From positions 640,001-704,000 of the forward strand of contig CAVWEH010000005.1 of the NCBI GenBank assembly GCA_963753975.1: DNA of 64,000 bases. The letters are read 5' to 3'. Every line of letters begins with the position of its first letter. Position 1 is the stretch's first letter. This DNA comes from an uncultured delta proteobacterium. GTDB lineage: Bacteria; Desulfobacterota; Syntrophia; Syntrophales; Smithellaceae. The translations under genes were made by a program, and so were the position numbers. Below the pieces are notes generated by a model. The model was not told the DNA's origin. It did no database searches and was given only the letters and a program-made list of their open reading frames with translations. Below, one piece after another: positions 3,883-28,197 of the stretch.

Positions 3883-4019
3883 CAGCAAATTTGGAGAGGT
3901 GCATAGAACTCTTTACAATAACGCGGTGCCGCACATTATCGGAGAGAATATATATTTGTTGGAAACAATTATTTCTATAAGAAAAGCAACTAAAATGTTT
4001 AAGAACACAGGAGGAACAT

Positions 4020-5725
4020 ATGACAAAAAGAAAAAGAATTGTAGTGATCGGCGGCTCAGCTGCTGGCCCCAAGGCGGCGGCAAAAGCCAGAAGAATCGAC
4101 AACGATGCGGAAGTTGTCATTCTGCAAAAAGATGCGGATCTTTCCATGGCGTCCTGCGGTTATCCTTATTATGTCGGCGGATATTTCAATGACCGCAACA
4201 TGCTTTTGTGCACGCCCACGGGCGTTGTTCGAAATCCGATGTTTTATCTCAACGCCAAGGACATCGACGCACGAGTAAACACGGAAGTCACAGCCATCGA
4301 CCGGAAAAACCATTCCGTTTCGTTTCAAAAATATTGTGACCGGCGAAACCGGCACCATTGACTTATGACAAACTCGTCATCGCCACCGGTTCCGTCCCGC
4401 AAATGCCGCCGGTGCCCGGCGTGGAACTCGAAGGCATTACCACCCTGCAATCCATGAAAGACGCCGACTTTCTGCGCAAAGTCCGCGACGAAGGAAAAAT
4501 CAAAAAAGCCGTCGTCATCGGCGGCGGGCTGATCGGCATCGAAACCTGCGAAGCCCTGCAACTGGCGGGTATCGAAATCACGGTGATTGAACTTTTGCCT
4601 CAGCTGCTCACGTTTCTGGACTGGGAACTGGCCAAACTCGTGGAAAACCATGTCAGGAGCAAAGGCGCCAATGTCATCACGGACAACGGCATTGCCGAAT
4701 TCCTCGGTGAAAACGGCAAACTGACGGCGGTCAAACTGCAAAACGGCACGGAACTGCCCTGTGAACTGGCGGTTGTGGCCATCGGCGTCTATCCCAACGT
4801 CAAACTGGCCAAAGAAGCTGGTCTGAAAATCGGCGAATCTGGGCGGCATTGATGTCAATGAATATATGCAGACTTCCGATCCGGATATCTATGCCGTCGG
4901 CGACTGCGTGGAAACGGTCAACAGAATTACCGGTAAAAAAGTGCTCGCGCCCTACGGCGATCTGGCCAACCTTCAGGGACGTGTGGCGGGAGAAAACGCC
5001 GCTTCGAAAAACTGCGTGACATTTCCCGGAACGATTCAAACCGGCATCTGCAAGGTCTTCGATTATGCGGCAGGCTCCACCGGACTTTCCGAAACAGCGG
5101 CAAAAAGACTCGGATATTCAGATATCATCACGGTCATCAACGCCAGCCCCGACAAGCCGGGGTTTATGGAAGGAAAGCTTCTGGTCACCAAGCTCATTGC
5201 CGATACAGAAAACAGGCAGAGTGTTGGGCGCTCAGTGCATCGGTCCCGGCAATGTCAGCAAGCAAATCGCCCAGTGGGCAATGGCCATCCAGGGAAAACT
5301 GACCGTTGAAGATATCATCAATGCGGATCTGCCCTATGCGCCGCCTTTTTCTCTGGCTATCGATCACTTCATCGCCACGGCGCACATTATGCAGAATAAA
5401 ATGAAAGGCAGGCTGAAGGGCATTAGTTGCAAGGAAGTACAACGAGAAAGTGCTAAACAATGAAAAACCTTTCCTCATCGACACGAGAGGGCCGGAAGAA
5501 TTCGAGGAAATGCGCCTGGGCATCGGCGAGACGCTTATTCCCCTGGGCGCGCTGCGCAAGCGATTGAAGGAACTTCCCGAAGATAAGAACAAGGAAATCA
5601 TCTGCTACTGCAAGATTTCACTGCGCGGCTACGAAGCGGCGCTGGCGCTGGAAGGCAATGGATGGAAAAACGTCAAGGTCATGGAAGGCGGCATCATGGC
5701 CTGGCCGTATCCGAGGGAAAAATAG
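4020..5725 (+). CDS. CoA-disulfide/persulfide reductase-rhodanese fusion (CoADR-RHD/Npsr-like), interrupted by about 5 single-base insertions (sequencing error or pseudogene)
   Basis: Five consecutive ORF fragments carry IVVIGGSAAG, SMASCGYPY, VIGGGLIG, YAVGDC, DLPYAPPFS and a C-terminal rhodanese CYCKISLRG; every junction is a +1 shift (about 4323, 4356, 4843, 5210, 5445). Confidence 0.85.
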
Positions 5726-5766
5726 ATCATGAATGAGATGCCCCTGAAAAGCAAATAGCCAGTTCT

Positions 5767-5967
5767 ATGATTTTGCTGGATGCCATCTCGCGGTGGCCCA
5801 CGACTGAGACGGTCTTTCGCCGGTATGACGAAGCGGCAGGTGTTTGCCTGTGCTGCACCTGCTTCTTCGATACGATCGAAGATATTACCGACAAATATCA
5901 TCTCGACGTTGCCGGGTTTATGCGCGATATCGAGGATGCCGCAGCAGGAAAAAAGCCGTTCGTGTAA
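5767..5967 (+). CDS. small Cys-containing protein (DUF1858-like); true start possibly 5729 across an indel
   Basis: MILLDAISRWPTTETVF...CLCCTCFFDTIE pattern; operonic position. Confidence 0.5.
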   Translation: MILLDAISRWPTTETVFRRYDEAAGVCLCCTCFFDTIEDITDKYHLDVAGFMRDIEDAAAGKKPFV

Positions 5968-6017
5968 CGTCTTTTGATTAAACAGAAATTAAGCCTTTTT
6001 TAAAAGGAGGAAATAAT

Positions 6018-6911
6018 ATGAAAAAAAATATTTTCTCAAAAATCCCTCTGATTATTTTTCTCCTCTTGCTGCCTTGCGCGGGTGGGGCAAGAGAAATCGC
6101 GCCGATTGTCTCCGCCGACTGGCTTCTGACCAATCTCAAAAATCCAAAATTGATTATTCTCGATGTCCGCCGGGTGGAAGACTACCGCGAGGGACACATC
6201 CCGAAAGCGCTCAGTGCCTTTTACGGTGCATGGGCATATAAAAAAGATGGTCTTTTTGCAGAGATCCCTGATCTGGACGACCTCAATGACACCATCGGCT
6301 ACGCAGGCATCAGCCAGGATTCCTGGGTTGTGGTCACAGGCAAAGTGGACACACCCCGGTTGAGCTATCAAAGCGCCCGGGTGGCCTGTACGCTGCAATA
6401 CGCTGGTTTGGTGAATGTGGCGCTCCTCGACGGCGGCATGAACAAGTGGATCGCGGATAAAAAGCCTCTATCCACAGACATTGTCCGCACGAAAGAAACC
6501 CCCTTCCAGGGAAAATATCGAAAGGGGCACTTTGCCGATAAGGATTATATTAAGAGCCGACTGGGCAAGATCGTTCTGCTGGATGTCCGCGAACCCGAAT
6601 ATTTCACCGGCAAGAAGAAGATGGACTGTGTCCCCCAAAGGGGAAGAATTCCGGGTGCCTTTAATCTACCTACCTCCTGCGCCTTTAATAAAGACGGCAC
6701 GTTCAAGACTAAAGAGGGGTTGGCTGTGATTGCTGAGGCCGCTGCGAATAAAGATAGATCAAAGGAAATCGTCACCTACTGTGACATCGGTCAGTGCTGC
6801 CCGGTATGGTCATACCTGCTTGCCGAAGTATTGGGCTACACCAATGTCCGGCTTTATGTCGGTTCCATGCAGGAATGGATGCAGGACCCAAATGCGCCCG
6901 TTACGCGCTGA
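6018..6911 (+). CDS. exported tandem-domain rhodanese/sulfurtransferase
   Basis: Signal peptide; ILDVR...GHIP, LLDGG, GRIPGA, YCDIG active-site Cys and LYVGSMQEW. Confidence 0.9.
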   Translation: MKKNIFSKIPLIIFLLLLPCAGGAREIAPIVSADWLLTNLKNPKLIILDVRRVEDYREGHIPKALSAFYGAWAYKKDGLFAEIPDLDDLNDTIGYAGISQDSWVVVTGKVDTPRLSYQSARVACTLQYAGLVNVALLDGGMNKWIADKKPLSTDIVRTKETPFQGKYRKGHFADKDYIKSRLGKIVLLDVREPEYFTGKKKMDCVPQRGRIPGAFNLPTSCAFNKDGTFKTKEGLAVIAEAAANKDRSKEIVTYCDIGQCCPVWSYLLAEVLGYTNVRLYVGSMQEWMQDPNAPVTR

Positions 6912-7297
6912 ATTTATCAGGTACAATCTGAACCTAATATTCTTCCCATCTGGTGGGCAAGGTCTGGGGGAGTTTGGAAAACAAGCATGGTGTTCGATTA
7001 AATCACGGGTATGACCCCCAAAACAAGCTTTGGAAATCAATTTTGCAACAAGCTGCGGGGTATGATATTCTCTGCTTCGCGGGATTATTCAACTGACCAA
7101 TTCTGACGTGCGACTTTTAGGTTATGCGCTTCGCTTTCGGAATTAGAGTTTCACGAATAAATCCAAAAATAGCCGGCGGGCGGCGGTTAAGTGAACTGCT
7201 TGCCGCTTACAGATGCATTTTATGTAAGCTATTTTTTTGGACACGGAAGAGGTTTTTCTTATCATTTTGAAAATATTTTTTATTAGGAGGTAAGTCC

Positions 7298-10487: not shown

Positions 10488-11665
10488 TGGCTGACGTACA
10501 TAATATAGAACATCAAGAGATCGTCCACCGGTGTTTCCGTTGCGGATATTGTAAATTCCCGAGCGACTATGTCGATTTCAACTGCCCGTCTTACAAGGCT
10601 TTCGGATGGGATACCTATTCTGCGGGCGGGAGGATGTGGCTCATCAGAGCCTGGCTGAGTGGCGAAATTAAAACGAGCCCCCATTTTGCCGAAATACTTT
10701 ACTCCTGCGTAGCATGCGATAATTGTAAGAATCAGTGCGTTTTCCCGAAATTCAAAGATTTTCTGCCGGAAATATTCCAGGAAACTAAAGTGGAACTGGT
10801 CAACGAAGGCAGGATTCCGCCGGAGGTTCGGGATTATTTCAAGGCCGTCGCCACCAACGGCAACCCTTACAAACTGCCGCAGTCGGAAAGAGGCAAATGG
10901 ACCGAAGGAACAGAATTAAAAAAATATTCGGGTCAGGAGTATCTCTTTTATGCGGGCTGCGTCGGTTCCTACGACGAAGTGGGACAAAAGATGGCCCGCA
11001 GCGTGGGGAGTCTGCTGGTTGGCGCCGGCGTGTCCCTGGGCATTCTGGGGAGTGAAGAAACCTGTGACGGCAACGAAGTCAAAATTCTCGGAGAGATGGG
11101 TCTTTTTACGCAACTGGCCAATGACAATATCAAGAAATTTAAGTCACAGGGCGTTAAGAATATTATCACCCTTGATCCCCATGCCCTGAACGTCTTCAAG
11201 AAAGATTATCCCAAACTGGGAGGGAGCTTTAAGGTACTTCACTATACGGAAATACTGGCTGGGTTAATCAAGGCAAAAAAAATTCCCCTTTCTAATTATT
11301 CGGCGAAAGTCACCTACCACGACCCCTGCTATTTAGGCAGGCATAATCAGATTTATGGTCCTCCGCGGGAGATACTGAAATCAATTCCCGGCCTCGAATT
11401 GGTCGAAATGCGTCGTAATTCTCTGAACGCGTTTTGCTGCGGAGGGGGAGGAGGAAACTTTTTTACGGACATTTTGGGTACAGGCGTTGACAGTGCGGGC
11501 CGTGTCCGTGTTCGGGAAGCTCTGGAGACAGGCGCCAATATTATCGCTGTAGCTTGTCCGAGCTGTGCCAAAATACTTATGGATGCTGTGAAGATGGAAA
11601 AGCTGGAAGACAAGCTGGAAGTTTTGGGCATCGCCGAAATCGTCGGGAGAGCCCGCAAAAAGTGA
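10487..11665 (+). CDS. (Fe-S)-binding CCG-domain oxidoreductase (GlcF-like)
   Basis: CFRCGYC, CVACDNC...C, YHDPCYLGR, CCGGGGG, ACPSC; TAATG overlap with the upstream gene. Confidence 0.9.
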   Translation: MADVHNIEHQEIVHRCFRCGYCKFPSDYVDFNCPSYKAFGWDTYSAGGRMWLIRAWLSGEIKTSPHFAEILYSCVACDNCKNQCVFPKFKDFLPEIFQETKVELVNEGRIPPEVRDYFKAVATNGNPYKLPQSERGKWTEGTELKKYSGQEYLFYAGCVGSYDEVGQKMARSVGSLLVGAGVSLGILGSEETCDGNEVKILGEMGLFTQLANDNIKKFKSQGVKNIITLDPHALNVFKKDYPKLGGSFKVLHYTEILAGLIKAKKIPLSNYSAKVTYHDPCYLGRHNQIYGPPREILKSIPGLELVEMRRNSLNAFCCGGGGGNFFTDILGTGVDSAGRVRVREALETGANIIAVACPSCAKILMDAVKMEKLEDKLEVLGIAEIVGRARKK

Positions 11666-11679
11666 AGAAAGGAAAGGGT

Positions 11680-12210
11680 ATGGATAAAGAAGATATACTC
11701 AAGGAAGTCTATGATAAAGCGAAGGGATACGAGCTCAAAGGAGGAAACTGCGCGCAGTGCAGTATTGCCGCTATTTTCGAAATAATGGGAGTGGAAGATG
11801 AAGGAGTATTCAGAGCCGCGACAGGTTTGGCCGATGGCGTGGGCTTAAGCGGAGATGGTCATTGCGGAGCACTTTCCGGAGGGACGATGGCCATCAGTTA
11901 CTTTTTCGGCAGAAGTCGAGAAGATATCGGCAGGATGGGCAAACAGATTAAGGCCTTGCTTCTGGCAAAAAAGCTTCATGATGAATTTGTGGAGAAATTT
12001 TCCACGTGCCGGTGTGCCGATATTCAGAAAAAACAGTTTGGCCGTTTCTTTAATCTCTATGATGTGGAAGAGATGAAGGCGGCCTTTAAGGCGGGCATGC
12101 CGGAAAAATGCTCGACGCTGGTAGGAGAGACGGCGCGAATAGCCCTGAAAATTATTCTCGATGAGCAGGAAGCAAGAAAGGCAAAGCAAGATGAACTTCC
12201 TGTTTTATAG
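11680..12210 (+). CDS. C-GCAxxG-C-C family redox protein (Cys form)
   Basis: GNCAQ...HCGALSGG...TCRCAD...KC; start after GGAAAGGG. Confidence 0.85.
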   Translation: MDKEDILKEVYDKAKGYELKGGNCAQCSIAAIFEIMGVEDEGVFRAATGLADGVGLSGDGHCGALSGGTMAISYFFGRSREDIGRMGKQIKALLLAKKLHDEFVEKFSTCRCADIQKKQFGRFFNLYDVEEMKAAFKAGMPEKCSTLVGETARIALKIILDEQEARKAKQDELPVL

Positions 12211-13021: not shown

Positions 13022-13050
13022 TTGACAGAGTGGATCAGTACGTTTAGTAT
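13022..13050 (+). promoter_or_regulatory. sigma70 promoter of the CsoR-family operon
   Basis: TTGACA (13022-13027), 17 bp spacer, TAGTAT (13045-13050). Confidence 0.75.
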
Positions 13051-13065
13051 ACCCCATAGGGTATA
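13048..13065. promoter_or_regulatory. CsoR/CstR-type operator palindrome
   Basis: TATACCC-CATA-GGGTATA, C/G tracts flanked by AT-rich inverted repeat, overlapping the -10/+1 region of the CsoR-family gene. Confidence 0.8.
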
Positions 13066-13066
13066 T

Positions 13067-13330
13067 ATGAATCCAGAAAGAAAAAAGGTTTCCAACCGCC
13101 TACGACGGATTGAAGGGCAAATTCGAGGACTTCAGCGTTTAATTGAGGAAGGAGCGCCCTGTATTGACATTTTAACTCAGGTATCAGCGGTTACATCTGC
13201 CATTAAGAAAACAGGTGGCGCCATATTTTCCAATTACATGAAAACATGTATAGAGGAATCTGCAGGTAATCCAAAAAAAATGCATAAAGATTTTCGTGCT
13301 GCATTATCCATGTTTATTGATTTATCCTGA
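13067..13330 (+). CDS. CsoR/RcnR family repressor, probably a CstR-like persulfide sensor
   Basis: NRLRRIEGQIRG...PCIDILTQVSAV...YMKTC; Tyr where Cu-sensing CsoRs have His. Confidence 0.88.
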   Translation: MNPERKKVSNRLRRIEGQIRGLQRLIEEGAPCIDILTQVSAVTSAIKKTGGAIFSNYMKTCIEESAGNPKKMHKDFRAALSMFIDLS

Positions 13331-13395: not shown

Positions 13396-14658
13396 ATGGC
13401 AGGTTTCACCAAAGCTCTGATGATTCTCAATATCAAATCCGCGTATGAACGCGTTGCATCCGGCGGATGGGTTTATCTTACCTTCGTTTGCATCTTCGGT
13501 CTCCTGTTGCTCATCGGTATTGGGGCTGGAATCCACGCCTTGTTCATCGCCGGCACGCGCCATACTTACGGAACCTATCGCGAAGTTCCTGTGGCTCTCC
13601 TCATTTCCACGTATGTATATTTTGTCGTTGCCTCCACGGGACTTTGCCTCGTTTCGTCAATAGGGCATCTTTTCGGCTTTCGTCAATATGTGCCCATCGC
13701 CAAGCGCGCCATTTATCTGTCAATTATGACTATCTTGGCCGGTTTTCTGGTCATCGGACTGGAAATCGAGCATCCTTTCCGCATGGTCATATATAATATC
13801 CTCTCTCCTAACATGAGTTCCAATATTTGGTGGATGGGAACACTTTATAGTTTTGCCCTGGTTTTTCTGACTATCGAATTTATTTTTCTTTTGCAGGAAA
13901 TAAAAAATAAAAAAGCCATAGTTGTGTGTTTGCTGGGGGTAATTACCGAAGTAGCCGCCAACAGCAATCTGGGAGGCGTTTTTGCCATGATGCACGGCCG
14001 TGAATACTGGTACGGCTCCTATCTGCCCGTCTACTTTGTTGCGTCCGCCATGATGACGGGTTGTGCCTTTATTATATTTTTTTTCGTTCTGTCCTACTGG
14101 ATCAACAGGAAAACCATGGATCAGCCAACCGAAAAAGCGCTCACGTCTGTGGGAAAGCTCGCCATTCTTCTGCTCGTAATAATCATGCTTTTCACTTTCT
14201 GGAAAATGATGATTACATCTGTCGGCGGGTTGACGGAGATTGCAGCTATGAACGCGCTTATCAGCGGTCCTTATGCCTTCCGTTTCTGGGGGGTTGAAGT
14301 GTTCGGAGGGATGATTATCCCGCTTGTTTTATTGCTTATATCCAGGACAAAAAATATGATGATCATGTTTATAGCGTCGGTATTTATGATCTTCAGCATT
14401 TTTTTCATGCGCCTGGATATGGTTGTCGTAGGACTGATTGTGCCTCTATATCTCGATCTTGGCGTTGCTGAATATTCCAAGCTGTATGCGTATACGCCGA
14501 GCGTTCATGAAATTATGGTAGTTCTGGGCGGCGTCGGCTTTTGCGTTTTAGCATTCCTTTTGGGTGAGAAGATTTTTGATGGATTTAAGCATACGGAAAT
14601 CAACCATATGCCTGAGCCGATAGCGATCGATGTTAACAAAACGGAAGAAGTGCCATGA
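13396..14658 (+). CDS. NrfD/PsrC family membrane quinol-interacting subunit
   Basis: About 10 TM helices; VPVALLISTYVYF, EIEHPFR, SSNIWWMG, FFMRLD. Confidence 0.88.
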   Translation: MAGFTKALMILNIKSAYERVASGGWVYLTFVCIFGLLLLIGIGAGIHALFIAGTRHTYGTYREVPVALLISTYVYFVVASTGLCLVSSIGHLFGFRQYVPIAKRAIYLSIMTILAGFLVIGLEIEHPFRMVIYNILSPNMSSNIWWMGTLYSFALVFLTIEFIFLLQEIKNKKAIVVCLLGVITEVAANSNLGGVFAMMHGREYWYGSYLPVYFVASAMMTGCAFIIFFFVLSYWINRKTMDQPTEKALTSVGKLAILLLVIIMLFTFWKMMITSVGGLTEIAAMNALISGPYAFRFWGVEVFGGMIIPLVLLLISRTKNMMIMFIASVFMIFSIFFMRLDMVVVGLIVPLYLDLGVAEYSKLYAYTPSVHEIMVVLGGVGFCVLAFLLGEKIFDGFKHTEINHMPEPIAIDVNKTEEVP

Positions 14659-15407
14659 AAAAAAATCGGTCCCAAGGCGGAGTGAAAGAAAAAGAGCTTC
14701 CGAAATATCCTCTTGATCAGGAACGCAGAAATTTTCTGAAGATGGGTCTTGTGATAACGGGCGTCGTAGCCTCCGGCTCTGTTTTATCTCTGATATCGAA
14801 CGTGGGGAAAGCGTATTCCTTCGATGCGTACCGAAAGAAGTATCCTTACAAGCCGCATTACAGCATGGTCATTAGGCAGGATCGCTGCATCGACTGCAAA
14901 CGATGCATGGAAGCCTGTGTGGCTACTAACCGTGTGCCCGACTATGGATGGAGGACGATGATTCTGGAAAAAAAAGTTCCCGAGTCCATGGATGAAAGAT
15001 GGGACTTTATACCGATACTATGCAACCAGTGCAATGATCCTCCCTGTGTGCGTACTTGTCCGACAATGGCAACTTATAAGGATAAAACCAACGGCATCGT
15101 CATGATGGATAATAAGAAATGTATCGGATGCAAGTCCTGCATGATGGCCTGTCCCTACGATATGCGCTATTATAACGAAGCCAAGAAAGCGATTGATAAA
15201 TGCGACTTCTGTTTTGAAGCGCGGCTTTCCAAAGGCATAAAGAACGTGGCCTGTTCGGAAGCCTGCCCCGCCGATGTCCGTGTATTCGGCGATCTGTCCG
15301 ATCCTGAAAGCAGAGTCTATGAACTTATCCACCAACTGCAAAAGCCGGTTTGGGTGTTGAGGGAAGAAGTAGGCGCCAAACCGAATATTTTTTACATGAA
15401 GGGCTAG
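14655..15407 (+). CDS. NrfC/PsrB family 4Fe-4S protein, Tat-exported
   Basis: ERRNFLK Tat motif; CIDCKRC...C, CNQC..PPCV..CP, CIGCKSCMMACP, KCDFC. Confidence 0.92.
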   Translation: MKKNRSQGGVKEKELPKYPLDQERRNFLKMGLVITGVVASGSVLSLISNVGKAYSFDAYRKKYPYKPHYSMVIRQDRCIDCKRCMEACVATNRVPDYGWRTMILEKKVPESMDERWDFIPILCNQCNDPPCVRTCPTMATYKDKTNGIVMMDNKKCIGCKSCMMACPYDMRYYNEAKKAIDKCDFCFEARLSKGIKNVACSEACPADVRVFGDLSDPESRVYELIHQLQKPVWVLREEVGAKPNIFYMKG

Positions 15408-15418
15408 CTTAGGATAAG

Positions 15419-17239
15419 ATGAAAAAAAGTTATATTTTTCTATTTTTGTTGATATTTTTCTGCACAACGAATGTTTGCATGGCCAAGCAGGAGACTTTCT
15501 CCGACGGAGGGGGTATTCTCTATACGGAACCATTGAAGGCTGTTATTTTCCGGCATCAATACCATGTGGATGTTAAACATATTACCTGCGATAAATGCCA
15601 CAGCGGCCTCTTTGAGATGGAAGCCCTCAAAGTTCAGGGAGAAAATGATTTCACTATGAAGTCCCTGGATGAAGGAAAGTATTGCGGAGCATGTCATAAC
15701 GGGAAGGATGCTTTTGCCTCGAACACCGAGTGCACCAAATGCCACGTTCGTCTGGACGATTGGCAAGGACGAGTGGGGTATCTCAAGGGGAACCCTATGC
15801 CGTATAAAATCCCTGTTTACAATACTTCCATTTCCTTCGGGCAGGGTGAAATGAAAGTCCGCTTCAATCACGAAAAGCATTCATCGCCTTTGAGCTGCCG
15901 GGATTGCCATTCGCAGCTCTTTCGAATCAAAAAAGGTTCAAACAATATAACCCTTCTGAATCACAATCCGCAAAAATACTGTTTTGGCTGTCATGATGGG
16001 AAAGAGACCTTTTCCTGGTATAGCTGCAATAAATGCCACAAAAACTGGACGGAAATTGCCCAGGTCGGCCCCCTGAAAACAAAGGCCGACAAAGGCAGTT
16101 GCTACAAATGTCATACCAGCGCGAGCGAAATGAAAGCCCTGGTAAAACCGCCGTTAATACAGAGCGAGGGAGAGGGGTGAGCAGGACCACCTCCCCCGGT
16201 TCGGGCGGAAGATTATTACAAGGGTTATATGGTAAATCCGGCGTGGATGGGCAAGGATTTTCACCTGGGCATGGAATGCGTTTCCTGCCACAAGGGAGAT
16301 GACAAAAGCCAAACAAAGGAAGCAGCCCACGCGGGATTTGTGCGCCAGCCGTCCGATAATCTGGAAACCTGCGGCATATGTCATAAGAAGACAGCCGCAA
16401 ACTACGCCAAAGCTCTTCATTACACCAGTTTGGGACAGTATGAAGGCGTCAAGCACAGGTTTTCCGCAGAAGAACTGAAAACCTTTGACAGTAAGGTTTT
16501 TAATCAATCGTGCCGGACATGCCATGCATCCTGCGGTGATTGCCATGTCAAATCGCCGCCTGTTTCCGGCATTACCACCGGGCTCTTGCAAGGCCACAAA
16601 TTCGTAAAGAAAAACGAAGGCAAGACCTGCGCTTCCTGTCACGGCGGCCGCGTTTATCCGGAATTTACGGGAGAATACGGTGGCACACCCGATATCCATT
16701 ATCAGAAAGGCATGATTTGTGTGGATTGTCACAAAAAGACCGAAATGCACGGGGACGGCACAATGTATAAATCCAAGCAGGAAGTCAAGGAGCGCCCCCG
16801 CTGTCAGTCTTGCCACAAAGATAAAAAATTTCAGCTCGCCCACGAAATACACAAGGATACGGTTAGCTGTCAGGGCTGCCATTCGTCGGGTCCGTATCGC
16901 CAGTGCTACAGCTGTCATCTGGATACGGGATCTTCATCCAAACCGGGTTTTATTTTGGGTTTAAATCCGCATGACAAGAAGACGTTGACGACGCTGAGGC
17001 TTGTTCCAACTGTAAGGACTACATTTAATCAGGCCGGAATCAAAATGGAAAACTTCGATACCCTGCCGAACTACTGGAATTCGGCGGTGCATAACATCAC
17101 GAAACGGACGGAGCGGACACGATCCTGTGATTCCTGCCATGTGGCAAAAGAAGGATTCCTTAAGCGCGAATCGCTTATTAAGGATGGTTCAAAAGCGAAT
17201 GAGGAGTTAATTTACAACATTAAACCAAGCAGCAAGTAG
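15419..17239 (+). CDS. multiheme c-type cytochrome selenoprotein, 606 aa, 17 CxxCH motifs, Sec254
   Basis: ORFs 15419 (7 CxxCH, signal peptide) and 16229 (10 CxxCH, no signal peptide) are in frame (offset 810 nt) with only TGA 16178-16180 between them: QSEGEG-U-AGPPPPVRAEDYYKGYMVNP; SECIS-like hairpin follows. Confidence 0.82.
16192..16209 (+). other. SECIS-like hairpin (multiheme cytochrome)
   Basis: UCCCCC-GGUUC-GGG(C)GGA, 11 nt after UGA, G-initiated apical loop. Confidence 0.7.
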
Positions 17240-17253
17240 ATTAGGAGGGTTTT

Positions 17254-18147
17254 ATGAGAAAAACAAGATGGTTAAAAGCAGTACTGATTTTCACTTTGTT
17301 ACTTTTGCCGCTCGCGGCGATGGCCAGAAGCATCGATCCCATTGTTTCCACGGACTGGCTGCAAAAGAATCTGAAAAACGCAAAAATAGTCATCGTGGAT
17401 GTGCGCAAGGTGGAAGACTACAAGGCGGGCCACATTCCGGGTGCGGTCAACGTATTTTACGGCTCCTGGGCAATTAAAAAAGGCGACTTGCTCAACGAAC
17501 TGCCGCCGATTGACGACCTGGCCGATGTCATCGGAGGAGCGGGAATAGACAAAAATTCTCTGGTCGTAATTGTCGGGAAAACGGAAAAAGTTCCCGATCA
17601 GTTTGATATGACCCGCGTTACCTGGACATTGAAATATGTCGGCGTTCCCAATGTAGCCATTCTCAACGGCGGGGAGGATCAGTGGGCAAAAGAAAATAAA
17701 CCCCTATCCGAGGATATGGTAAAGGCTAAGGCAAAACCATTCAAGGCTTCTGTCAATAAAAATCTGTACGTGGATAAAGCTTTTGTGCTGGCCAAAGTCG
17801 GCAAAGTAATTATTGTGGATGCCCGTGGCCCCGCTTTCTTTGAAGGGAAAGAAAAGCTCCCTTTCGTGCCCAAAGTAGGACGAATCAAAGGAGCAGTTAA
17901 CCTCCCCGTGGGACAATTGTATACGCCGGAAGGTTTGTATAAAGCCAAGGCGGAGCTTGCTGCACTGGCCGAAAAAGCGGTGGGCAAGGATATGAAAAAA
18001 GAAATCATCGTCTATTGCGATACCGGAAAGACGTGTACTTCGTGGGCCTTTATTATGACCGATATGCTCGGTTACAAAGATGTGGGAGTCTACGACGGAT
18101 CATTTATGGAATGGGCGGCTGATCCGAGCGCACCAATCGAACCATAA
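17254..18147 (+). CDS. exported tandem-domain rhodanese/sulfurtransferase (paralog of 6018-6911)
   Basis: Signal peptide; VDVR...GHIPGA, GRIKGA, YCDTG, VYDGSFMEW. Confidence 0.9.
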   Translation: MRKTRWLKAVLIFTLLLLPLAAMARSIDPIVSTDWLQKNLKNAKIVIVDVRKVEDYKAGHIPGAVNVFYGSWAIKKGDLLNELPPIDDLADVIGGAGIDKNSLVVIVGKTEKVPDQFDMTRVTWTLKYVGVPNVAILNGGEDQWAKENKPLSEDMVKAKAKPFKASVNKNLYVDKAFVLAKVGKVIIVDARGPAFFEGKEKLPFVPKVGRIKGAVNLPVGQLYTPEGLYKAKAELAALAEKAVGKDMKKEIIVYCDTGKTCTSWAFIMTDMLGYKDVGVYDGSFMEWAADPSAPIEP

Positions 18148-18233: not shown

Positions 18234-18593
18234 TTACTTCTTAGTTCCCGGCAGCGTTAAAGAGTACTCATAGATAAGTTTCATGTCCTCATCGGAGATT
18301 TTATCTTTAGGAAAAGGAGGCATCACGCCTTTTGATCCATCGGCTTTTAAGGGATTTCTATTATAAGCGGTGAAGACGGCAAGACTTTTCATTTTGGCCG
18401 AACCTATAAGCGGTATAGCTGGATTGATTTTGTTTCCACCATTGGGATGACAGGCGCCGCAACGGAGGGCATAAAGTTTCGCTCCGTCCGGCTCGGCTAA
18501 GGCCGTGCTAACGGGGGGAATCATTGTTTCTCCGAAGACTACCCCCCCGGCGATGGTGAAAATAAACAAAAACCAGATTGTTGATTTTTTCAT
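18234..18593 (-). CDS. monoheme class I c-type cytochrome (c6/c553-like)
   Basis: Signal peptide; GAKLY...CGACH; distal Met in GVMPPF. Confidence 0.85.
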   Translation of the reverse strand: MKKSTIWFLFIFTIAGGVVFGETMIPPVSTALAEPDGAKLYALRCGACHPNGGNKINPAIPLIGSAKMKSLAVFTAYNRNPLKADGSKGVMPPFPKDKISDEDMKLIYEYSLTLPGTKK

Positions 18594-18760
18594 AATACCT
18601 CCAGATTTTTATTCAGATGGTGGCTGCTTTTTCGTCTAGTAGCCTGGTTTATTAGGTTATTTCTACACTAGCCTCCCGGTAATGATCTGTAAAGTTAAAT
18701 TTTTGCAAGTCAACGAACCGGGAAGATATTATCATAAAAATTGTTTGTCTCTACATTTTT

Positions 18761-20013
18761 TTAATCATTTCCTTTTGTCTGCAGCACGGGGAAAATCTTA
18801 TTGAGAATCCAGAAGAAGATAAACGGCAGCACCGCGACGAGCAGGGCGCCGGCCAGCCCTTCTTTAAAAGTATCAAGGCTGCGAGGAATGATGGGCATCT
18901 GGTAATCCATATACCCGGAGAAAGTCAGCGAAAAAGACTGGCCGCCGATGACCACGTTCCATCTCATCATGAAGACCCCGAAAAGCACCAGCAAAAGCGC
19001 CGGGATTATTCTGCGGACTGTCAGACCGGGGAGCAAAAGAAGGATGAAGGGGACCAGGTTTCCCAAAAAATATTGGAGCACAAAAATATTTATAAAATCT
19101 TTTCCATAGATGACATTCCTCAGGATGTCCCATGATTTTACCGCTGTGTAGCCGCGAAAGACCAGGTCCAAGAGCTCCAGGCTGATCGAGAAGATCATAA
19201 AGAAAATGAGATATTTCACAGTTGCCTGCATCGTGTTCATTTCCACGCCTTTAATCTCTTTGAATGTATTGCCTGCGTCATTAGCTTTTTCCCGGGAAGC
19301 GACAAATTTTTTAATTTCCATAATGATGATGTAGATCAGCAGGCAGAGGGCGACGCCGGAAACAATGGCCGACATGATAAAAATAACCGGCATGAGAGGG
19401 GTCATCCACAGGGCGTTGGCTTTTACCGAACCGAAGATGAAGCCGGCATACCCGTGAAGAAAACAGGCAATCGGCACACCGACTCCCGCCAGTATCTTGA
19501 TGGCTTTGGCGTCCAGCTTCAGGCTGGCAGCGCTTATGTCCAAGGCGCCGAGGGTAAGGATTGTGTGTACCATGTATTTTATTTTTTCGGCCAAACTCTT
19601 ATTCGCCTTGTCTTTGAGTCTTAATGATACTTCCACCAGATGTTTCCGGAAAAGAAACCACAGTTCGGAGGCTACTACCGATGCATAAGCAAACAGGACG
19701 ACGCCAAAAGCAGCGATCGCCGAAGTGAAGTGCGGTGTAAAAACCACATATAAACTTCTTTCGGGGTGCGTCCTAGGTGTAATAGCAGAGGCAGTGGTGC
19801 AACGATTAGCAGGGCGAAAGAAAAGACCAGGGAGAATCCGGCAATTTCTTTCAGCGGTTTTATATCGAAGAGATGATACAGAGAGGAAAGGACAAAAGCA
19901 CCGGCCACGAGTCCCGTCATGAACGGATACATGACTATCTGAATGGCCCAATAAATGTACTCATTGGGATAAACAAAAAGTTCTTTGATTGTCCATAATT
20001 CTTCCAGAACCAT
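18761..20013 (-). CDS. NrfD/PsrC family membrane subunit (one +1 frameshift near 19770)
   Basis: YIYWAIQIVMYPFMTGL...LLHLG joins HPER...TPHFTSAIAAFG, LHGYAGFIFG, MMRWNVVIGGQ. Confidence 0.85.
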
Positions 20014-20016
20014 TTC

Positions 20017-20791
20017 TTACCTCACTTCATCGCCAAGCCCGATATAGTAAACTTTGGGATCTGTTCCGTATTCCGGTTTGTGGATTGCTACCTGCTGCGT
20101 ACGGATGATGTTTGTCACGGGATCTCCGGCATCTTTGATATTGCCGATCTGCCTTGCCCCCGTCGGGCACGCCTGAACACAGGCCGGCTGCATGCCGTTG
20201 TTAATCCGGTGATAACAGAAATTACATTTATCCGCCACGTGGTGGACTGGATGAAAAAATCTCATACCGTAGGGACAGGCCATGATACAGTAACCGCAAG
20301 CCAATACACCACTTCCGGTCTATCAGCACCACACCGTCGGCATTCTGGTAAGTCGCGCCTACCGGACATACCTGGACACATGAAGGCTTTTCGCATTGGT
20401 TGCAGAGTTTGGGAACGAAAAATGCCTTTTTAATTTTCCCCTGCGGAATATCTTTAAACTTACCGCGTCCCAGATCGATCCGACCGGTAGTGAATCCGTA
20501 CCGCGCCTCTTTGGGAGTATCGGCGAATACTTCTCCTTCTCCGGTTACGACATATCGTTCAACCCAGGTTCGCGAGACATCGGCATCAAAGGGGATTTCG
20601 TTTTCCAGCTTACAGGCCTTTACACAGAAACCGCAGCCGATGCATTTATAGGTATCGACGAGAAATACAAAGCGAAGGGGCGAGGTCCAGGCATGAACAT
20701 CGGGGGGCCGGAAAATTCCGTCCAGTCCTTTGACCAGCACCATGGCGGCGGTTCCTTTTATGGCCAATATTATAAAATCTCTCCTGTTCAC
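20017..20791 (-). CDS. NrfC family 4Fe-4S protein, Tat-exported (one +1 frameshift near 20300)
   Basis: MNRRDF Tat motif; CIGCGFCVKAC, CNQCEKPSCVQVCP, WCIG/CGYCIMACPY, KCNFC, PACVQACP. Confidence 0.88.
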
Positions 20792-20800
20792 CGGTACCTC

Positions 20801-21262
20801 CTAATGGGGTTTGGATGCCTCATGTGGTTCGTGGCAGAGCACACATTCTAACCCGGGATTGTGCTGATCCGGGTTAATGCCTTTGATCTGTGACCTTAGG
20901 CTGTTGGGATAGACAAGACGGGTATGGCACCTAAGGCAGAGCTCCCGGCTTCGGTCCAGGGCAAGTTTCAGCGGATCAGCTGGATGGGAAAATGCCGGAC
21001 CATGGCAGTTTTCACATTCAATATTTTTATGCTTTGAGGAAGAAAGCTTTTGCGCCTGCCCTGCGTGACAGGCACTGCAGAATTCTCGGCCTTGATATTT
21101 TACCGTAAAATTTTTCCATTCCTCAATATTGGATTGCCGGTACCAGCCATACGTATACCCTTGCTCATGAGTTCCAAAATCATTGGGCACCCAGAAGCTT
21201 CTGGCGATTAAAATGATTGCCGCAAGAGCCAAAACCACATACAGAGGCCGCAGTACATGCAT
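20801..21262 (-). CDS. membrane-anchored tetraheme c-type cytochrome
   Basis: N-terminal TM; CSACH, CENCH, CLRCH, CVLCH. Confidence 0.85.
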   Translation of the reverse strand: MHVLRPLYVVLALAAIILIARSFWVPNDFGTHEQGYTYGWYRQSNIEEWKNFTVKYQGREFCSACHAGQAQKLSSSKHKNIECENCHGPAFSHPADPLKLALDRSRELCLRCHTRLVYPNSLRSQIKGINPDQHNPGLECVLCHEPHEASKPH

Positions 21263-21336
21263 AAGCTAAAATTCTCCAAGATTGCCGGCGATAATCATAT
21301 TCTCCTGCTCAAGGAATGTGTGATTCACTCCCGTAT

Positions 21337-23412
21337 TTAAAAACGGTAAGAAAGCGTCACAAATCCCACGTGGGACTCGTAAGAAGGATTATTATAAGCT
21401 CCCGTCAGGTATGCCCCGCTCGTGACATACTGATACCCGTCATACTGCGCATCATTATAATCATATTTTTCATAGGCATAACCTGCCGCAACGGATAGCG
21501 ATTTCGTCACATTATAGGAAAGTCTGATGAAAAAACAGGAAAGCTTGTAGCCATCCCAGTTGGAAAGATCGATATTGTCCTGAGTTCTGCCCGCCGGAAG
21601 AGGATTTGCACCCAAGAGATAGGTGTAATCGACGGAACCATCGGCCTGCAGATAGCTGTATTCGAGCAATAGAGTAAGTTTTTCCGGAACAATAAATATT
21701 TCGGCGCCCGCCGAGTAACTGTAGTTTTCGTCCTTCTGCGCTGCCGTCCAATTAAAGTTTGTCGGTGTCGGCGGCAGTGACGGGTCAACTGCGCCTGTTG
21801 TCTGCCGCTGGAACTGGTCCTGCCGGATGCGTTCATAATCGAAAGAGCCGAATAGCCTGATTCGCTTGTTGATCAGATAATCAACATCGATCAGGAATTC
21901 ATCACCCCTGTCACCGGTCAATCCTAAAATAGTATCGGGATAATTCGTTTCCCTGTGCTTGTAACTTAGGCTGATGCTGAAGTTGTCGGTGGGGAAAAAG
22001 TCCAGGCTGGCCTTATAGGTATCCCGAGTTTTTCCGGCAGCGTCGAAACGTCTGATGAAGGTTTCAATATCGGTCGGGTCAGTAATCTGGAATTCCGCTC
22101 TTCTGTCCAGCCTTTCGTATCCGATACGGGCGGTCAAAAAATCAAATCCCTTCCATCTAAGTTCGCCGCTGAAGAGATCATCCCTGTTATCGGGGATGTC
22201 TTCTCTCTCTCTGCTGATTGTTGAATGATTGTAAGCGCCAAGGAAATAAAATTTTGCCGGTAGCTGAAAACCAAGTTCCGTGCCGTATTTTACTCTCCGG
22301 TAGCTAAATAGGGTGTTGGTGAATGTTGCGGGTGTCTGGGTTGTATCCGTTATTGTAATAACATCCGATTTATTTTCCCGGTCGTCATATTTAAAGAAAA
22401 ATTTGGCATCTAGGAAAGGCAGCGGCTTCGATGTGACTGAAGTAGCGATGCTGTTTGTGTCGACCTGGCCGTTAAAGAGCGGAGTGCTCAAAGTGATGTT
22501 GTTCAGTCCTGTGGCGACAACATATGAATTACTCAACAGGGCATCCGATTTGGCGCTGGCCGTAGCCAGATCAACATTGAACTTGCTGTTTAAAGGCAAT
22601 TTAAGCGCGCCCTTGAGGTTAACTTTGTAGTAGTTGTTATCCGGCGGCATCGAATATGTATCTGTCACCGACGCCGTAGTACCATTAGAGGGGTTGCGGA
22701 AATAAAGGTTTGTGTTGGAGTCGGTGAAGCTGCTGTAAAAGTAGCCCAGGGAAATGTATAAGGGATTGTGGACATATCCAGCCAGCAAATTAATGCTGTT
22801 TGTTTTGTAATCAATCGGTGCCGGAAGCTCTATAGCAATCCCGCCAGGCGTTGTTCCCGCGGCACCGAGGGGATAAATGCCCGCTCGTTCATCTGCAGCC
22901 ACGGAGAAATCCACGAAAAAGGGCTTCAAGACATCGAGCTTGAATCCAGCACCGTAATCTTTCCGTTTTGTCGAGTAATCGAATGTATTCCAGGTACTGG
23001 TATTAGTGCTGGGCGGATGGGTGGGGTAGGTCAGATTGTTAGTCCCCGCGCCTGAATACAACGTTAGCGCATCATAGGTGAAATTGTGGGGAATTTCATC
23101 GTAGTTAACGTTGAACTTGAAGGCTCCCCATTTCCCGCCTTCCAGGTTATAACTCTGAGTATCGTAGAACATGTTACGGCTGTAGAAATCCACATAATAT
23201 TTATCGTCATCATATTTGATTTTAACGTCGCCGTAGAGGCCATCCTGGATGTCTCCGTATTCGTTAAATTTAGCTTTATTGCCGTTGATGTGGGTGAGAG
23301 TGCCCTGCGCGCTGATTTCACCGGAAAATTTATCCTCCTGCTCTTCGGCAAAGGCCGGACTCAAGGAGAACAAACCGAGTAAAAGAACTGATAAAAATAT
23401 TTGTCTTTTCAT
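21337..23412 (-). CDS. mtrB: MtrB/PioB family outer-membrane beta-barrel
   Basis: Signal peptide, KAKFNEYGD, PAPIDYKT, aromatic-rich strands, terminal LSYRF; directly downstream of a decaheme cytochrome. Confidence 0.88.
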   Translation of the reverse strand: MKRQIFLSVLLLGLFSLSPAFAEEQEDKFSGEISAQGTLTHINGNKAKFNEYGDIQDGLYGDVKIKYDDDKYYVDFYSRNMFYDTQSYNLEGGKWGAFKFNVNYDEIPHNFTYDALTLYSGAGTNNLTYPTHPPSTNTSTWNTFDYSTKRKDYGAGFKLDVLKPFFVDFSVAADERAGIYPLGAAGTTPGGIAIELPAPIDYKTNSINLLAGYVHNPLYISLGYFYSSFTDSNTNLYFRNPSNGTTASVTDTYSMPPDNNYYKVNLKGALKLPLNSKFNVDLATASAKSDALLSNSYVVATGLNNITLSTPLFNGQVDTNSIATSVTSKPLPFLDAKFFFKYDDRENKSDVITITDTTQTPATFTNTLFSYRRVKYGTELGFQLPAKFYFLGAYNHSTISREREDIPDNRDDLFSGELRWKGFDFLTARIGYERLDRRAEFQITDPTDIETFIRRFDAAGKTRDTYKASLDFFPTDNFSISLSYKHRETNYPDTILGLTGDRGDEFLIDVDYLINKRIRLFGSFDYERIRQDQFQRQTTGAVDPSLPPTPTNFNWTAAQKDENYSYSAGAEIFIVPEKLTLLLEYSYLQADGSVDYTYLLGANPLPAGRTQDNIDLSNWDGYKLSCFFIRLSYNVTKSLSVAAGYAYEKYDYNDAQYDGYQYVTSGAYLTGAYNNPSYESHVGFVTLSYRF

Positions 23413-23423
23413 CGTTATACCTT

Positions 23424-24347
23424 TTACCGGAGAAAGTATTGTCCCCTCACCGAAGGCCCCATGCTTCCATGAATGTTGGTATGGCAATTCAGGCAACCGC
23501 GGGCAATCATCCTGTTGGATGCAGAACCCTGGAATGTTTCAAACCTGGTGTAAATTGTTCCGGGATGGCGAGTGGCGTCGTGGCAGCTCTGACAGAGCAA
23601 TGGCGGCTTCGAGATTAGAAGTTTCCCGTGATTGCTGCCGTGGGGCACGTGGCAGGTCAGACAATTTTCGGCAACCGGCGGATGTTCCCACAGGAATGGC
23701 CCACGCTTTTCGGCATGACACTGGAAACAGAGTTCATTTACCGTGTCCGCCTTTATCATATTCGGCCCTGATGAGCCGTGCTGGTCATGACACTGGGTGC
23801 ATTTTACGAGGCCTTCCTTCACCGGATGATGCGATTGTTTATTGACTTGAGCTCGAATATCGGCATGGCAGGTGAAGCAAAGAGCCGGTTCACTGGTCTT
23901 TAAATTGTATTTCGTTCCGGAGTGTCCGCTGTGGCAATCACTGCAGGAAACCCCGTTGACTTTATGTCTGCTCAGATCCCAAAAAGGTACGGCTCTCGAA
24001 TCCTGATGACAGGAGAGGCATTTGGCCTGCTTTATTTCCGGAGCATCATTCTTCGCGAAGGCAATCAAGCCGGCTCTCTGAGTGCCGCCTGTCTGTACAT
24101 GCGCAAGCCCCGGACCGTGACATGCTTCACAACCATAGCTGTTGGCTGGATTTCCGGGAATTGCCGTCTTGGAGTGTGTTGATTTCAAATAACTATCATA
24201 ATTTTTTTGGTGACAGGCCCGGCAGACGTCGATACCGGCATAATCATCAGCGGCAGCCGCGGATTGTTGAAAACCTACTGTTATTATGATCAGAAGGGAA
24301 AAGATAAAAAGAGAAAACAGCAAACTTTTGATTTTTTTTATCTTCAT
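23424..24347 (-). CDS. mtrA: DmsE/MtrA family decaheme c-type cytochrome
   Basis: Exactly 10 CxxCH; KQSHHPVKEG, EKRGPFLWEHPPV, CLNCHTNIHGS motifs. Confidence 0.92.
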   Translation of the reverse strand: MKIKKIKSLLFSLFIFSLLIIITVGFQQSAAAADDYAGIDVCRACHQKNYDSYLKSTHSKTAIPGNPANSYGCEACHGPGLAHVQTGGTQRAGLIAFAKNDAPEIKQAKCLSCHQDSRAVPFWDLSRHKVNGVSCSDCHSGHSGTKYNLKTSEPALCFTCHADIRAQVNKQSHHPVKEGLVKCTQCHDQHGSSGPNMIKADTVNELCFQCHAEKRGPFLWEHPPVAENCLTCHVPHGSNHGKLLISKPPLLCQSCHDATRHPGTIYTRFETFQGSASNRMIARGCLNCHTNIHGSMGPSVRGQYFLR

Positions 24348-27690: not shown

Positions 27691-28197
27691 TTACGATTTG
27701 TTTTGTGACGCCAATGTTTTGAGATAATCGATCAGCATTAGCGCGTCTGCGGCCACTAAACGGCCGATTGGTCCAGTGCTATAAACGGCGCCTTCGATGG
27801 TGCCATCCGGTCTGATAATGAAGCCGGTTGCATGGAGGAACAATTTCTTATCGTCGTAAAAGGCCCCGGTCATGCCGGCAAAGTTCTTTGCATCCATACC
27901 GTATGCCAACGGGAAGGTCAGTTTACGGCGTTCAACCATCTTTTGGGCTTCTTCCAGGTTATCGATAGAAGCGCCGATAATTTTGATGCCCTTTTCACTG
28001 AATTCATTAAGACGTCCCTGAAAATCAGCTAACTGCTGATTGCAGAATGGTCACCAGCGTCCCCTGTAAACGAGCAAGACCCACCAGTTTCCGCTCTCTT
28101 TCTCGGGCAGGGTCAACGTTGTGCCGTCGATAAGCTTGAATTCCATCTTGGGGAAAAGATCGCCACCGTCAAGTTTCTTCATTTCTGTCTGAGCCAT
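27691..28197 (-). CDS. AhpC/TSA (peroxiredoxin-like) selenoprotein, 168 aa, UxxC with Sec49
   Basis: ATG 28197 after AAGGAGG; VLLVYRGRW-U-PFCNQQL with TGA at 28051-28053, in frame with ORF 27691-27939. Confidence 0.9.
28023..28041 (-). other. SECIS-like hairpin (peroxiredoxin-like gene)
   Basis: AAUCAGC-AGUUA-GCUGAUU, perfect stem 9 nt after UGA. Confidence 0.75.

Follow-up and report, generated by a model that had tools for sequence, protein, structure and literature searches.

Two annotated cytochrome genes of an uncultured Smithellaceae bacterium are very probably one gene for a multiheme selenoprotein paired with a rhodanese

A cytochrome gene interrupted by an in-frame UGA

We analysed a stretch of 64,000 nt from the genome of an uncultured delta proteobacterium of the Smithellaceae (GenBank assembly GCA_963753975.1, contig CAVWEH010000005.1, positions 640,001 to 704,000, forward strand); this whole stretch is called the window, and coordinates are those of the window. 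Two open reading frames (ORFs) on its plus strand encode multiheme c-type cytochrome sequence. ORF A (15419-16180, +) specifies 253 residues with a hydrophobic N-terminus and seven CxxCH heme motifs, and terminates at a TGA (16178-16180). ORF B (16229-17239, +) specifies 336 residues with ten CxxCH motifs, and its N-terminus, judged by eye, has no hydrophobic stretch. Sixteen open codons (16181-16228) bridge the TGA to ORF B, all in frame. An earlier reading of the window, here called the original prediction, had drawn attention to the TGA, to the open in-frame codons behind it and to the missing signal peptide of the 10-heme ORF. The first two can be seen directly in the sequence, and the third was borne out by eye. 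When the TGA is read through as selenocysteine (Sec), the two ORFs become a single gene (15419-17239, +) for a 606-residue protein with 17 CxxCH motifs and Sec at codon 254 (U254; 16178-16180, +) in the motif GEG-U-AG. The protein would start with a 22-residue signal peptide ending in CMA (15419-15484, +; read by eye).

The proposal that the two cytochrome ORFs form one 17-heme selenoprotein is supported by a TGA conserved in relatives, by Cys at the aligned position of a sister clade, by a hairpin downstream of the UGA and by the Sec machinery of the genome. From these comparisons we conclude that 15419-17239 is almost certainly one gene in which the UGA at 16178-16180 encodes Sec. The product is likely to be a periplasmic c-type cytochrome with 17 hemes, and recoding is likely to proceed through the SelB pathway, directed by the hairpin. 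The selABCD genes, whose presence in the genome had been singled out as a check on recoding, are all accounted for: selB (364 bits), selA (597 bits) and selD (383 bits) each score above cut-off, and ARAGORN finds a tRNA-Sec with anticodon TCA. The selD gene (G000:C5:32823-33752) itself contains one in-frame TGA, and its product is probably a Sec-containing selenophosphate synthetase.

The residue at the UGA site in relatives

To read the counts that follow, it should be kept in mind that relatives are not independent samples, and that the numbers describe the loci examined and not whole groups. In a six-frame search of 41 related genomes with the joined protein, all 19 matches that span residue 254 carry TGA there. 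A core query (residues 215-606) searched against 401 genomes of the phylum at E<=1e-30 gave 46 matches in 44 genomes. All 45 matches that cover the site, the most distant with 33% identity, contain exactly one TGA; the remaining match, a fragment from the end of a contig, stops short of the site. At 43 of 43 loci read, Gly precedes the TGA, Ala or Gly succeeds it, and the protein sequence is conserved on both sides. Finally, a collection with one genome per species holds at least 593 related stretches, and among the best 80 of these the site is TGA in 79 and CGA in the remaining one. The titles of these stretches name, among the matches listed, Smithella, Syntrophaceae, Syntrophales, Syntrophus, Syntrophorhabdaceae and a few Nitrospirota.

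The first Cys forms came from a search with an 85-residue piece around the site, which gave 11 protein-database matches and is not a census. Three of these proteins (P0127, P0129 and the full-length P0132) carry, within a Gly-rich loop, a Cys that aligns with the Sec. At E<=1e-20, 963 relatives of P0132 were found; where named, they are Bacteroidota, Ignavibacteria, Melioribacteraceae or Calditrichota. All of the best 120 of these 963 carry Cys at the aligned site (111 by pattern, 9 by eye), and this best set has eleven heme motifs, the last one being CxxxCH. The Cys homologs are single ORFs. TGA and Cys are the two states that the original prediction expected at codon 254 of homologs, and they are the ones found, in the Sec clade and in its sister clade respectively. 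Other residues are rare within the Sec clade: Ala in P0016, P0028, P0059 and P0122, Tyr in P0022, and Arg in P0032, whose DNA reads CGA in locus L128. Two database proteins, P0012 and P0077, have Trp at the site, which may represent either TGG or a TGA translated with a different code.

In public gene calls the Sec-type members are cut in two at the TGA. Among the best 120 database matches, 113 consist of the downstream half alone, starting just past the site and holding ten or nine CxxCH motifs; six are full-length proteins that span the site, and one (P0059) spans it without the N-terminus. This annotation amounts to the view that the TGA is a true stop between two separate genes, and the number of such calls is what speaks for it. 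It does not sit well with the comparison of relatives. The protein is conserved on both sides of the in-frame TGA down to the lowest identity noted above, and the start codons chosen by the public calls for the downstream half vary in position. Attachment of c-type hemes takes place outside the cytoplasm, and yet that half has no signal peptide. The Cys homologs span the site uninterrupted, and the hairpin described below is under constraint at the RNA level. Halves lying out of frame or apart, which had been named as evidence against a joined protein, were not encountered: the two are contiguous and in frame in 43/43 and 80/80 loci, and were never seen among these loci as separate genes with their own signal peptides. 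We therefore regard a true stop as vanishingly unlikely and, on the comparative sequence data, as already refuted.

One relative departs from the general pattern of a single TGA. L018 (G013:C1:47188-49003), of the 17-heme form, has a TAA further on in addition to the TGA, and its C-terminal part matches as a separate piece; it is either a frameshifted pseudogene or an assembly error.

A constrained hairpin downstream of the UGA

A hairpin of the selenocysteine insertion sequence (SECIS) type was located at 16192-16209 (+) from its fold, its pairing in relatives and a constraint on wobble positions. Seven base pairs form its stem, from which one C bulges, and the apex is GUU. The stem begins at 16192, 11 nt after the UGA, and the apex reads GGUUC if the closing G-C pair is open; a hairpin with such a loop at that distance is what had been described beforehand. 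Rfam, searched over the whole window at the gathering threshold, gave no match.

The sequence that follows the Sec distinguishes two clades. Clade 1 includes the window protein, has at least 51% identity to it and reads U-AGAPPPV at the site; clade 2 has 33-41% identity to the window protein and reads U-GGxVAPLEPY. In 31 aligned clade-1 sequences, 87.6% of the hairpin cells pair; sliding the 3' partner by one to three columns lowers this to 36-60%. The entropy of third codon positions was then calculated for 94 distinct clade-1 sequences from 109 loci. Codons +1 to +3 after the UGA, which are four-fold degenerate, are free (1.40, 1.98 and 1.84 bits), and the loop codons +6 and +7 are fairly variable (1.43 and 1.36 bits). 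The stem codons hardly vary, with 0.44 bits at +4, 0.76 at +5, 0.00 at +8 and 0.08 at +9. The third position is T in 88/94 sequences at codon +4 and G in 93/94 at codon +9. At codon +8 it is G in 94/94 even though the residue varies (Arg in 45, Lys in 26, others in 23). The nucleotide is thus more conserved than the residue that it helps to encode, which indicates selection on the RNA. Clade 2 also forms a seven-pair hairpin with a GUU apex, with 100% of its cells paired. Here two pairs show compensatory changes (C-G to A-U and U-A to G-C), and none of 500 shuffles reaches the covariation score. In both clades the GUU apex starts 18-19 nt after the UGA. In the window and in those relatives that have a C at alignment column 18, the register of the stem shifts by one and the C bulges out.

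The original prediction further held that five other Sec sites in the window share this geometry. This stood in part. One peroxiredoxin-like site has its hairpin at the same distance from the UGA, a DsbA-like site differs in its loop, and the five sites as such were not identified, a screen for TGA plus hairpin being too unspecific. The peroxiredoxin-like ORF (27691-28197, -) contains a TGA at 28051-28053 within the motif W-U-P-F-C, which places Sec at the peroxidatic position, and the TGA is followed by a 7-bp hairpin with an AGUUA loop. By its sequence this ORF is probably another selenoprotein. The DsbA/thioredoxin-like ORF (37432-38034, +) has a TGA at 37465-37467 in the motif Y-I-U-P-F-C (UxxC); its NCBIfam matches are weak. 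A protein of the C_GCAxxG_C_C family is encoded upstream of the cytochrome operon (11554-12210, +), and NCBIfam TIGR01909 labels this family "(seleno)protein". The in-frame TGA in its 5' extension looks like part of a chance extension and not like a Sec codon.

An 11-heme core with a lineage-specific extension

As judged from the alignments, the conserved unit of the family is an 11-heme Sec/Cys cytochrome with a core of ~390 residues, made up of heme 1, a Gly-rich Sec loop and ten further hemes. The loop is short and probably exposed. The order of the 11-heme form is signal peptide, one CxxCH, about 22-40 residues, Sec and ten CxxCH. In the window protein heme 1 of this core is heme 7 (CYKCH; 16100-16114, +), with C14, C17 and H18 invariant in alignment A3. 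The Sec had been placed in a linker between a 7-heme and a 10-heme module; this has to be revised, since heme 7, the Sec loop and the ten hemes that follow form one conserved unit. The six hemes ahead of it lie in two c7-type triheme domains (residues about 37-207; 15527-16039, +), which match TIGR04257 with 144 bits (cut-off 40), PF14522 with 140 bits (cut-off 24.8) and PDB 3ov0 with an E-value of 2.3e-39. The 17-heme form makes up 7 of the 43 loci read and 13 of the best 80 of the at least 593 related stretches. On these sequences the two c7 repeats are a lineage-specific N-terminal addition, present only in the Smithella-like lineage, that is, the window's genus and its close kin.

This architecture bears on the idea that the UGA is a selenium-dependent switch in the 17-heme lineage, where termination would release a secreted 7-heme electron carrier when selenium is scarce. 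Such a truncated product would have a signal peptide and complete c7 domains, and c7-repeat proteins do occur as separate genes elsewhere (N-terminal matches of 49-54% identity in genomes G015, G016, G018, G023, G032 and G036). In the common 11-heme form, however, a stop at the UGA would yield no more than a short peptide with one heme. The UGA is therefore not expected to have been selected for a switch, and a 7-heme short form is no general feature of the family. We therefore consider a switch of this kind very unlikely.

None of the NCBIfam models covers the family. Nor was a description of the family found in the full-text literature on Sec-containing cytochromes, a search whose coverage leaves out most subscription journals and supplements.

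To obtain a structural view, models of both types of core were predicted. The model of the Sec-type core, built on 44 sequences, has a mean predicted local distance difference test score (pLDDT) of 73. The Cys-type model, built on 126 sequences, has a mean pLDDT of 88.9 and a predicted template modelling score of 0.82; in it a short beta-hairpin carries the Cys at its tip. A Foldseek comparison of the two models with the PDB returned no match at E<=0.001, and a look-up in the ESM Atlas returned generic cytochrome clusters only. With VIA-align the top chain for both models is that of the octaheme tetrathionate reductase (OTR), 1sp3 (1sp3_A). The Sec-type core aligns with a Z of 7.3 and a root-mean-square deviation of 4.9 A over 233 residues (next row, 2.6), and the Cys-type model with a Z of 8.3 and 4.4 A over 251 residues, at a Foldseek probability of 0.96 (next row, 3.8). 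The profile of the Cys-type sequences (A5) matches 1sp3 at E 4.8e-7 with collinear heme motifs. The models and profile together suggest that the ten-heme part (16181-17236, +) is a distant relative of OTR and not a member of that family. We limit the relationship to a distant one, and to the ten-heme part, because a Z of 7-8 rates as middling for the tool.

Genes around the cytochrome

Directly upstream of the cytochrome lie genes for an integral membrane subunit of the NrfD/PsrC type, which interacts with quinol (13396-14658, +; Pfam NrfD, 78 bits, cut-off 25.8), and for a four-cluster ferredoxin subunit resembling NrfC, DsrO and TtrB (14655-15407, +; Pfam Fer4_11, 83.6 bits). The NCBIfam models for TtrB, NrfC and DsrO match the latter with 168-176 bits, all under their cut-offs. 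Just upstream of the cytochrome (within 1.5 kb), such NrfD/NrfC-like genes are present in 7/7 of the 17-heme loci as against 0/36 of the 11-heme loci.

Downstream follows a gene for a periplasmic two-domain rhodanese with a signal peptide and a YCDxG active-site loop (17254-18147, +; Pfam Rhodanese, PF00581, 119 bits in two stretches). The loop Y-C-D-x-G is invariant in the 17 sequences of alignment A4, and no NCBIfam equivalog reaches its cut-off for this protein. A rhodanese gene adjoins the cytochrome in 27 of 31 clade-1 loci, in 25 of them immediately downstream. The same arrangement was found by Pfam scan in 6/6 Cys-type metagenome loci, whereas tblastn with the window's rhodanese detected a partner in only 9 of 60 Cys-type loci. 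From these counts the rhodanese appears to be a near-constant partner gene that almost always accompanies the Sec/Cys cytochromes.

Two operons with the short, 11-heme form have the order Sec cytochrome, two-domain rhodanese, small ORF, a multiheme cytochrome of 609-756 residues, a second rhodanese, and a c7-type cytochrome fused to cytochrome b. Both arrangements, NrfCD in the 17-heme loci and the c7-cytochrome b in the short-form operons, would thus supply a membrane module that interacts with quinol. The neighbours in the short-form operons were considered as orthologs of ext-operon genes, and this was ruled out, as no NCBIfam Ext model reaches its cut-off.

At the 5' side of the operon a promoter-like site (TTGACA, 17 nt, TAGTAT; 13022-13050, +) matches the consensus at 10/12 positions; this is a consensus match only, and in the region as a whole promoter-like sites are no commoner than in its shuffles. 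Overlapping the -10 hexamer is a perfect palindrome, ATACCC-N4-GGGTAT (13049-13064), which occurs once in the window against 0.10 expected by chance. It is followed by a gene for a repressor of the CsoR/RcnR/CstR family (13068-13330, +; Pfam Trns_repr_metal, PF02583, 89 bits), listed as an ORF from GTG 12965 with a probable start at ATG 13068. The palindrome is a candidate operator of this repressor, a role suggested by the operators of CsoR and CstR. Two Cys are present in the repressor, and its metal-ligand position is without His; this is presumably the signature of the persulfide sensor CstR as opposed to CsoR. A regulatory setting different from the window's CsoR-family repressor was seen at three Cys-type metagenome loci (L152, L167 and L198), where the cytochrome-rhodanese pair is directly preceded by a gene for a sigma-54 activator containing a PAS domain and directly followed by one for a small TPR protein.

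Comparison with known systems

The only characterised multiheme selenoenzyme that we found in a literature search is MccSep (ExtKL) of Geobacter sulfurreducens (Mihara et al., Sci Adv, August 2026; PDB 9wt8). This protein combines five hemes with a Sec at residue 325, which lies in a C-terminal immunoglobulin (Ig)-like domain and is a nucleophile beside a His/Cys-ligated heme (heme 2). The enzyme acts as a reductase of polysulfide and selenite, and sulfur respiration cannot proceed without it (PMC13510729). The cytochrome of the window resembles it in several respects. Both are periplasmic multiheme c-type cytochromes with one UGA-encoded Sec, whose codon public annotation takes for a boundary between two successive genes. 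Cys-type relatives exist for both, and each has a gene of the rhodanese family in the same cluster. They differ in the order of their parts: MccSep carries its five hemes ahead of a Sec in an Ig-like domain at the C-terminus, in the motif DGUP, whereas the window family has 11 or 17 hemes and a Sec after the first core heme and before the other ten, in the motif G-x-G-U-A/G-G. The MccSep/ExtKL model NF040886 (cut-off 250 bits) gave no match to the protein at E<=1 and none in the genome at E<=0.01. The chains of 9wt8 reached only E 0.34 against profile A3 and gave no match at E<=10 against A5. Membership in the MccSep/ExtKL family was ruled out by these model and profile tests and by the different order of parts.

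OTR of Shewanella oneidensis (PDB 1sp3; TIGR04315), the best solved-structure match of both models, has eight hemes as opposed to the eleven of the family core. TIGR04315 (cut-off 375 bits) matched neither the protein at E<=1 nor the genome at E<=0.01. The cytochrome-type selenoproteins named in a 2026 review are ExtKL, the porin-type protein GSU2204 and the tetrathionate reductase family, some members of which are annotated as selenoproteins (PMC13188914). The 'nanowire' cytochrome GSU1996 (PDB 3ov0; TIGR04257) consists of c7-type triheme repeats like those at residues about 37-207 of the window protein, which differs in that it fuses the repeats ahead of a catalytic-looking Sec module.

At the domain level, the NrfD/NrfC-like genes and the periplasmic rhodanese of the window recall PsrABC with Sud. 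We take the logic of that system to be that an NrfD/PsrC-type quinol subunit and a four-cluster ferredoxin feed a periplasmic catalytic subunit, and that a rhodanese-type protein presents the sulfane sulfur. The window differs in having no molybdopterin subunit, and the multiheme Sec cytochrome occupies the catalytic position. A further resemblance at the domain level is to TsdA and SoxAX, with a Cys or Sec near a heme for S-S chemistry (discussion of PMC13510729).

In the literature on multiheme cytochromes with rhodaneses a single lead was found, in Dethiobacter alkaliphilus. The multiheme cytochrome DealDRAFT_1917, whose gene lies in a cluster with rhodanese genes, used to carry the wrong name thiosulfate sulfurtransferase and is up-regulated on thiosulfate relative to ferrihydrite (PMC10376724). 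The same kind of misnaming is seen in the present family. The Joint Genome Institute (JGI) name "thiosulfate/3-mercaptopyruvate sulfurtransferase" stands on P0011, P0020, P0033, P0159, P0178, P0183, P0200, P0231 and P0241, cytochromes that contain no rhodanese domain.

Proposed function and the role of the selenocysteine

Building on the observations above, namely the recoded UGA, the family, its pairing with rhodanese and the resemblance in fold, we infer an electron path, a substrate and a role for the Sec. We propose that the cytochrome may be a quinol-fed periplasmic reductase of sulfane-sulfur compounds in which the Sec acts as the nucleophile, a proposal that we consider about evenly poised between right and wrong. 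Menaquinol would be oxidised by the NrfD/NrfC-like module, and the c7 domains, followed by the heme chain, would carry the electrons to an active-site heme. From its place on the Gly-rich loop, the selenolate would attack the S-S (chalcogen-chalcogen) bond of polysulfide, thiosulfate, tetrathionate or a rhodanese persulfide. The resulting Se-S adduct would be reduced at the nearby heme, with release of sulfide. This mechanism follows the logic shown for MccSep and the scheme of polysulfide reductase and its Sud carrier. Only a few relatives lack Sec or Cys at the site, and the rhodanese is near-constant; both argue for chemistry on a sulfur substrate rather than for a pure electron relay.

Several observations weigh against this reading or against parts of its foundation. 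Folded alone, the hairpin of the window is no better than chance (-9.3 kcal/mol, z +1.4, with 191/200 shuffles folding at least as well), and in the 31 clade-1 sequences there is no pair that has changed on both sides; it is the comparison with relatives, not the single-sequence fold, that makes us take the hairpin as real. The rhodanese lies beside only 4/12 clade-2 loci by tblastn, a count to be read as a lower bound because tblastn missed most of the Cys-type partners that Pfam found. Relatives with Ala, Tyr or Arg at the site exist and retain all 11 heme motifs and all nine invariant histidines; since they do, the Sec/Cys would not be required for folding, and it is perhaps dispensable for some functions as well. 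The region of most interest is also the least well modelled. The Sec-type model gives the Sec loop low confidence, with pLDDT <50 for core residues 33-46, and the Cys-loop block 71-80 of the Cys-type model is only moderate (mean pLDDT 64). Finally, the similarity to 1sp3 is weak, and the Sec loop and first heme fall outside the aligned region.

The main alternative concerns what the Sec does at the heme. The 11 heme motifs are accompanied by only 9 invariant His outside them, both among the 44 Sec-type sequences of alignment A3 and among the 126 aligned Cys-type sequences, so at least two hemes have no conserved distal His. The Sec/Cys is the sole other invariant potential ligand near heme 1. 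It could therefore be an axial ligand of a c-type heme (His/Sec), comparable to the His/Cys ligation in TsdA, SoxAX, DsrJ and MccSep (heme 2), and not a free nucleophile; catalysis would then take place on the ligated chalcogen. Multiheme enzymes that convert sulfur compounds typically contain His/Cys hemes (PMC13510729), and the stretch that holds the Cys at the tip of a beta-hairpin in the Cys-type model is not fully disordered. Against ligation, the Ala, Arg and Tyr variants keep their motifs and histidines, the models show little order in the loop, which is rich in Gly, and in MccSep it is a separate Cys, not the Sec, that serves as the ligand (PMC13510729). On balance we regard axial ligation as possible if rather unlikely. 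A bolder version, which we consider doubtful, would make the His/Sec-ligated heme the site of catalysis in a quinol-linked, molybdenum-free enzyme that reduces thiosulfate, polysulfide or rhodanese persulfide, spread across anaerobic Desulfobacterota and Nitrospirota and with Cys versions in Bacteroidota, Ignavibacteria and Calditrichota. If true, it would be the first natural selenium-ligated heme.

A reductase with Sec as the nucleophile must also be set against the opposite direction of electron flow. Adjoining the operon on the other strand is a second respiratory cluster (18234-23496, -), with genes for a mono-heme cytochrome c, an NrfD-like protein, a 4Fe-4S protein, a c7-type cytochrome and an outer-membrane porin of the MtrB/PioB type (TIGR03509, 272 bits). 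From its gene content, this cluster may provide the Sec cytochrome operon with a conduit through the outer membrane. The cytochrome with its rhodanese might work in the oxidising direction, on thiosulfate or sulfide in the manner of TsdA, or serve electron transfer only, as a relay to or from the cell surface, with NrfCD reducing the quinone pool. Besides the adjoining cluster, such a direction would fit the carriers, which to judge by record titles are mostly syntrophs not known as sulfur respirers. It would also fit the action of tetrathionate reductase and TsdA-type enzymes on the reversible thiosulfate/tetrathionate couple (PMC13510729). The conserved Sec/Cys site and the near-constant rhodanese point to sulfur chemistry rather than to a relay, and we hold this alternative to be decidedly unlikely.

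Whichever way the electrons run, the cytochromes appear to form a second and larger family of multiheme selenoproteins, unrelated in sequence to MccSep by the profile and NCBIfam tests. It extends over at least 593 related stretches at one genome per species and over 44 of the 401 sampled genomes of the phylum. The pairing with rhodanese offers a hypothesis for the reduction of sulfur compounds in syntrophs and other anaerobes that have no obvious molybdenum enzymes for it, and the split into Sec and Cys forms is a natural experiment on why selenium is used beside hemes.

Further genes in the window

A second secreted two-domain rhodanese is encoded at 6018-6911, near a DUF302 gene, within a region (3899-7001, +) that also contains fragments of a pyridine nucleotide-disulfide oxidoreductase (3899-5309, +) broken by several TGAs. 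The same class of oxidoreductase is found near the Sec cytochrome in another genome (L059).

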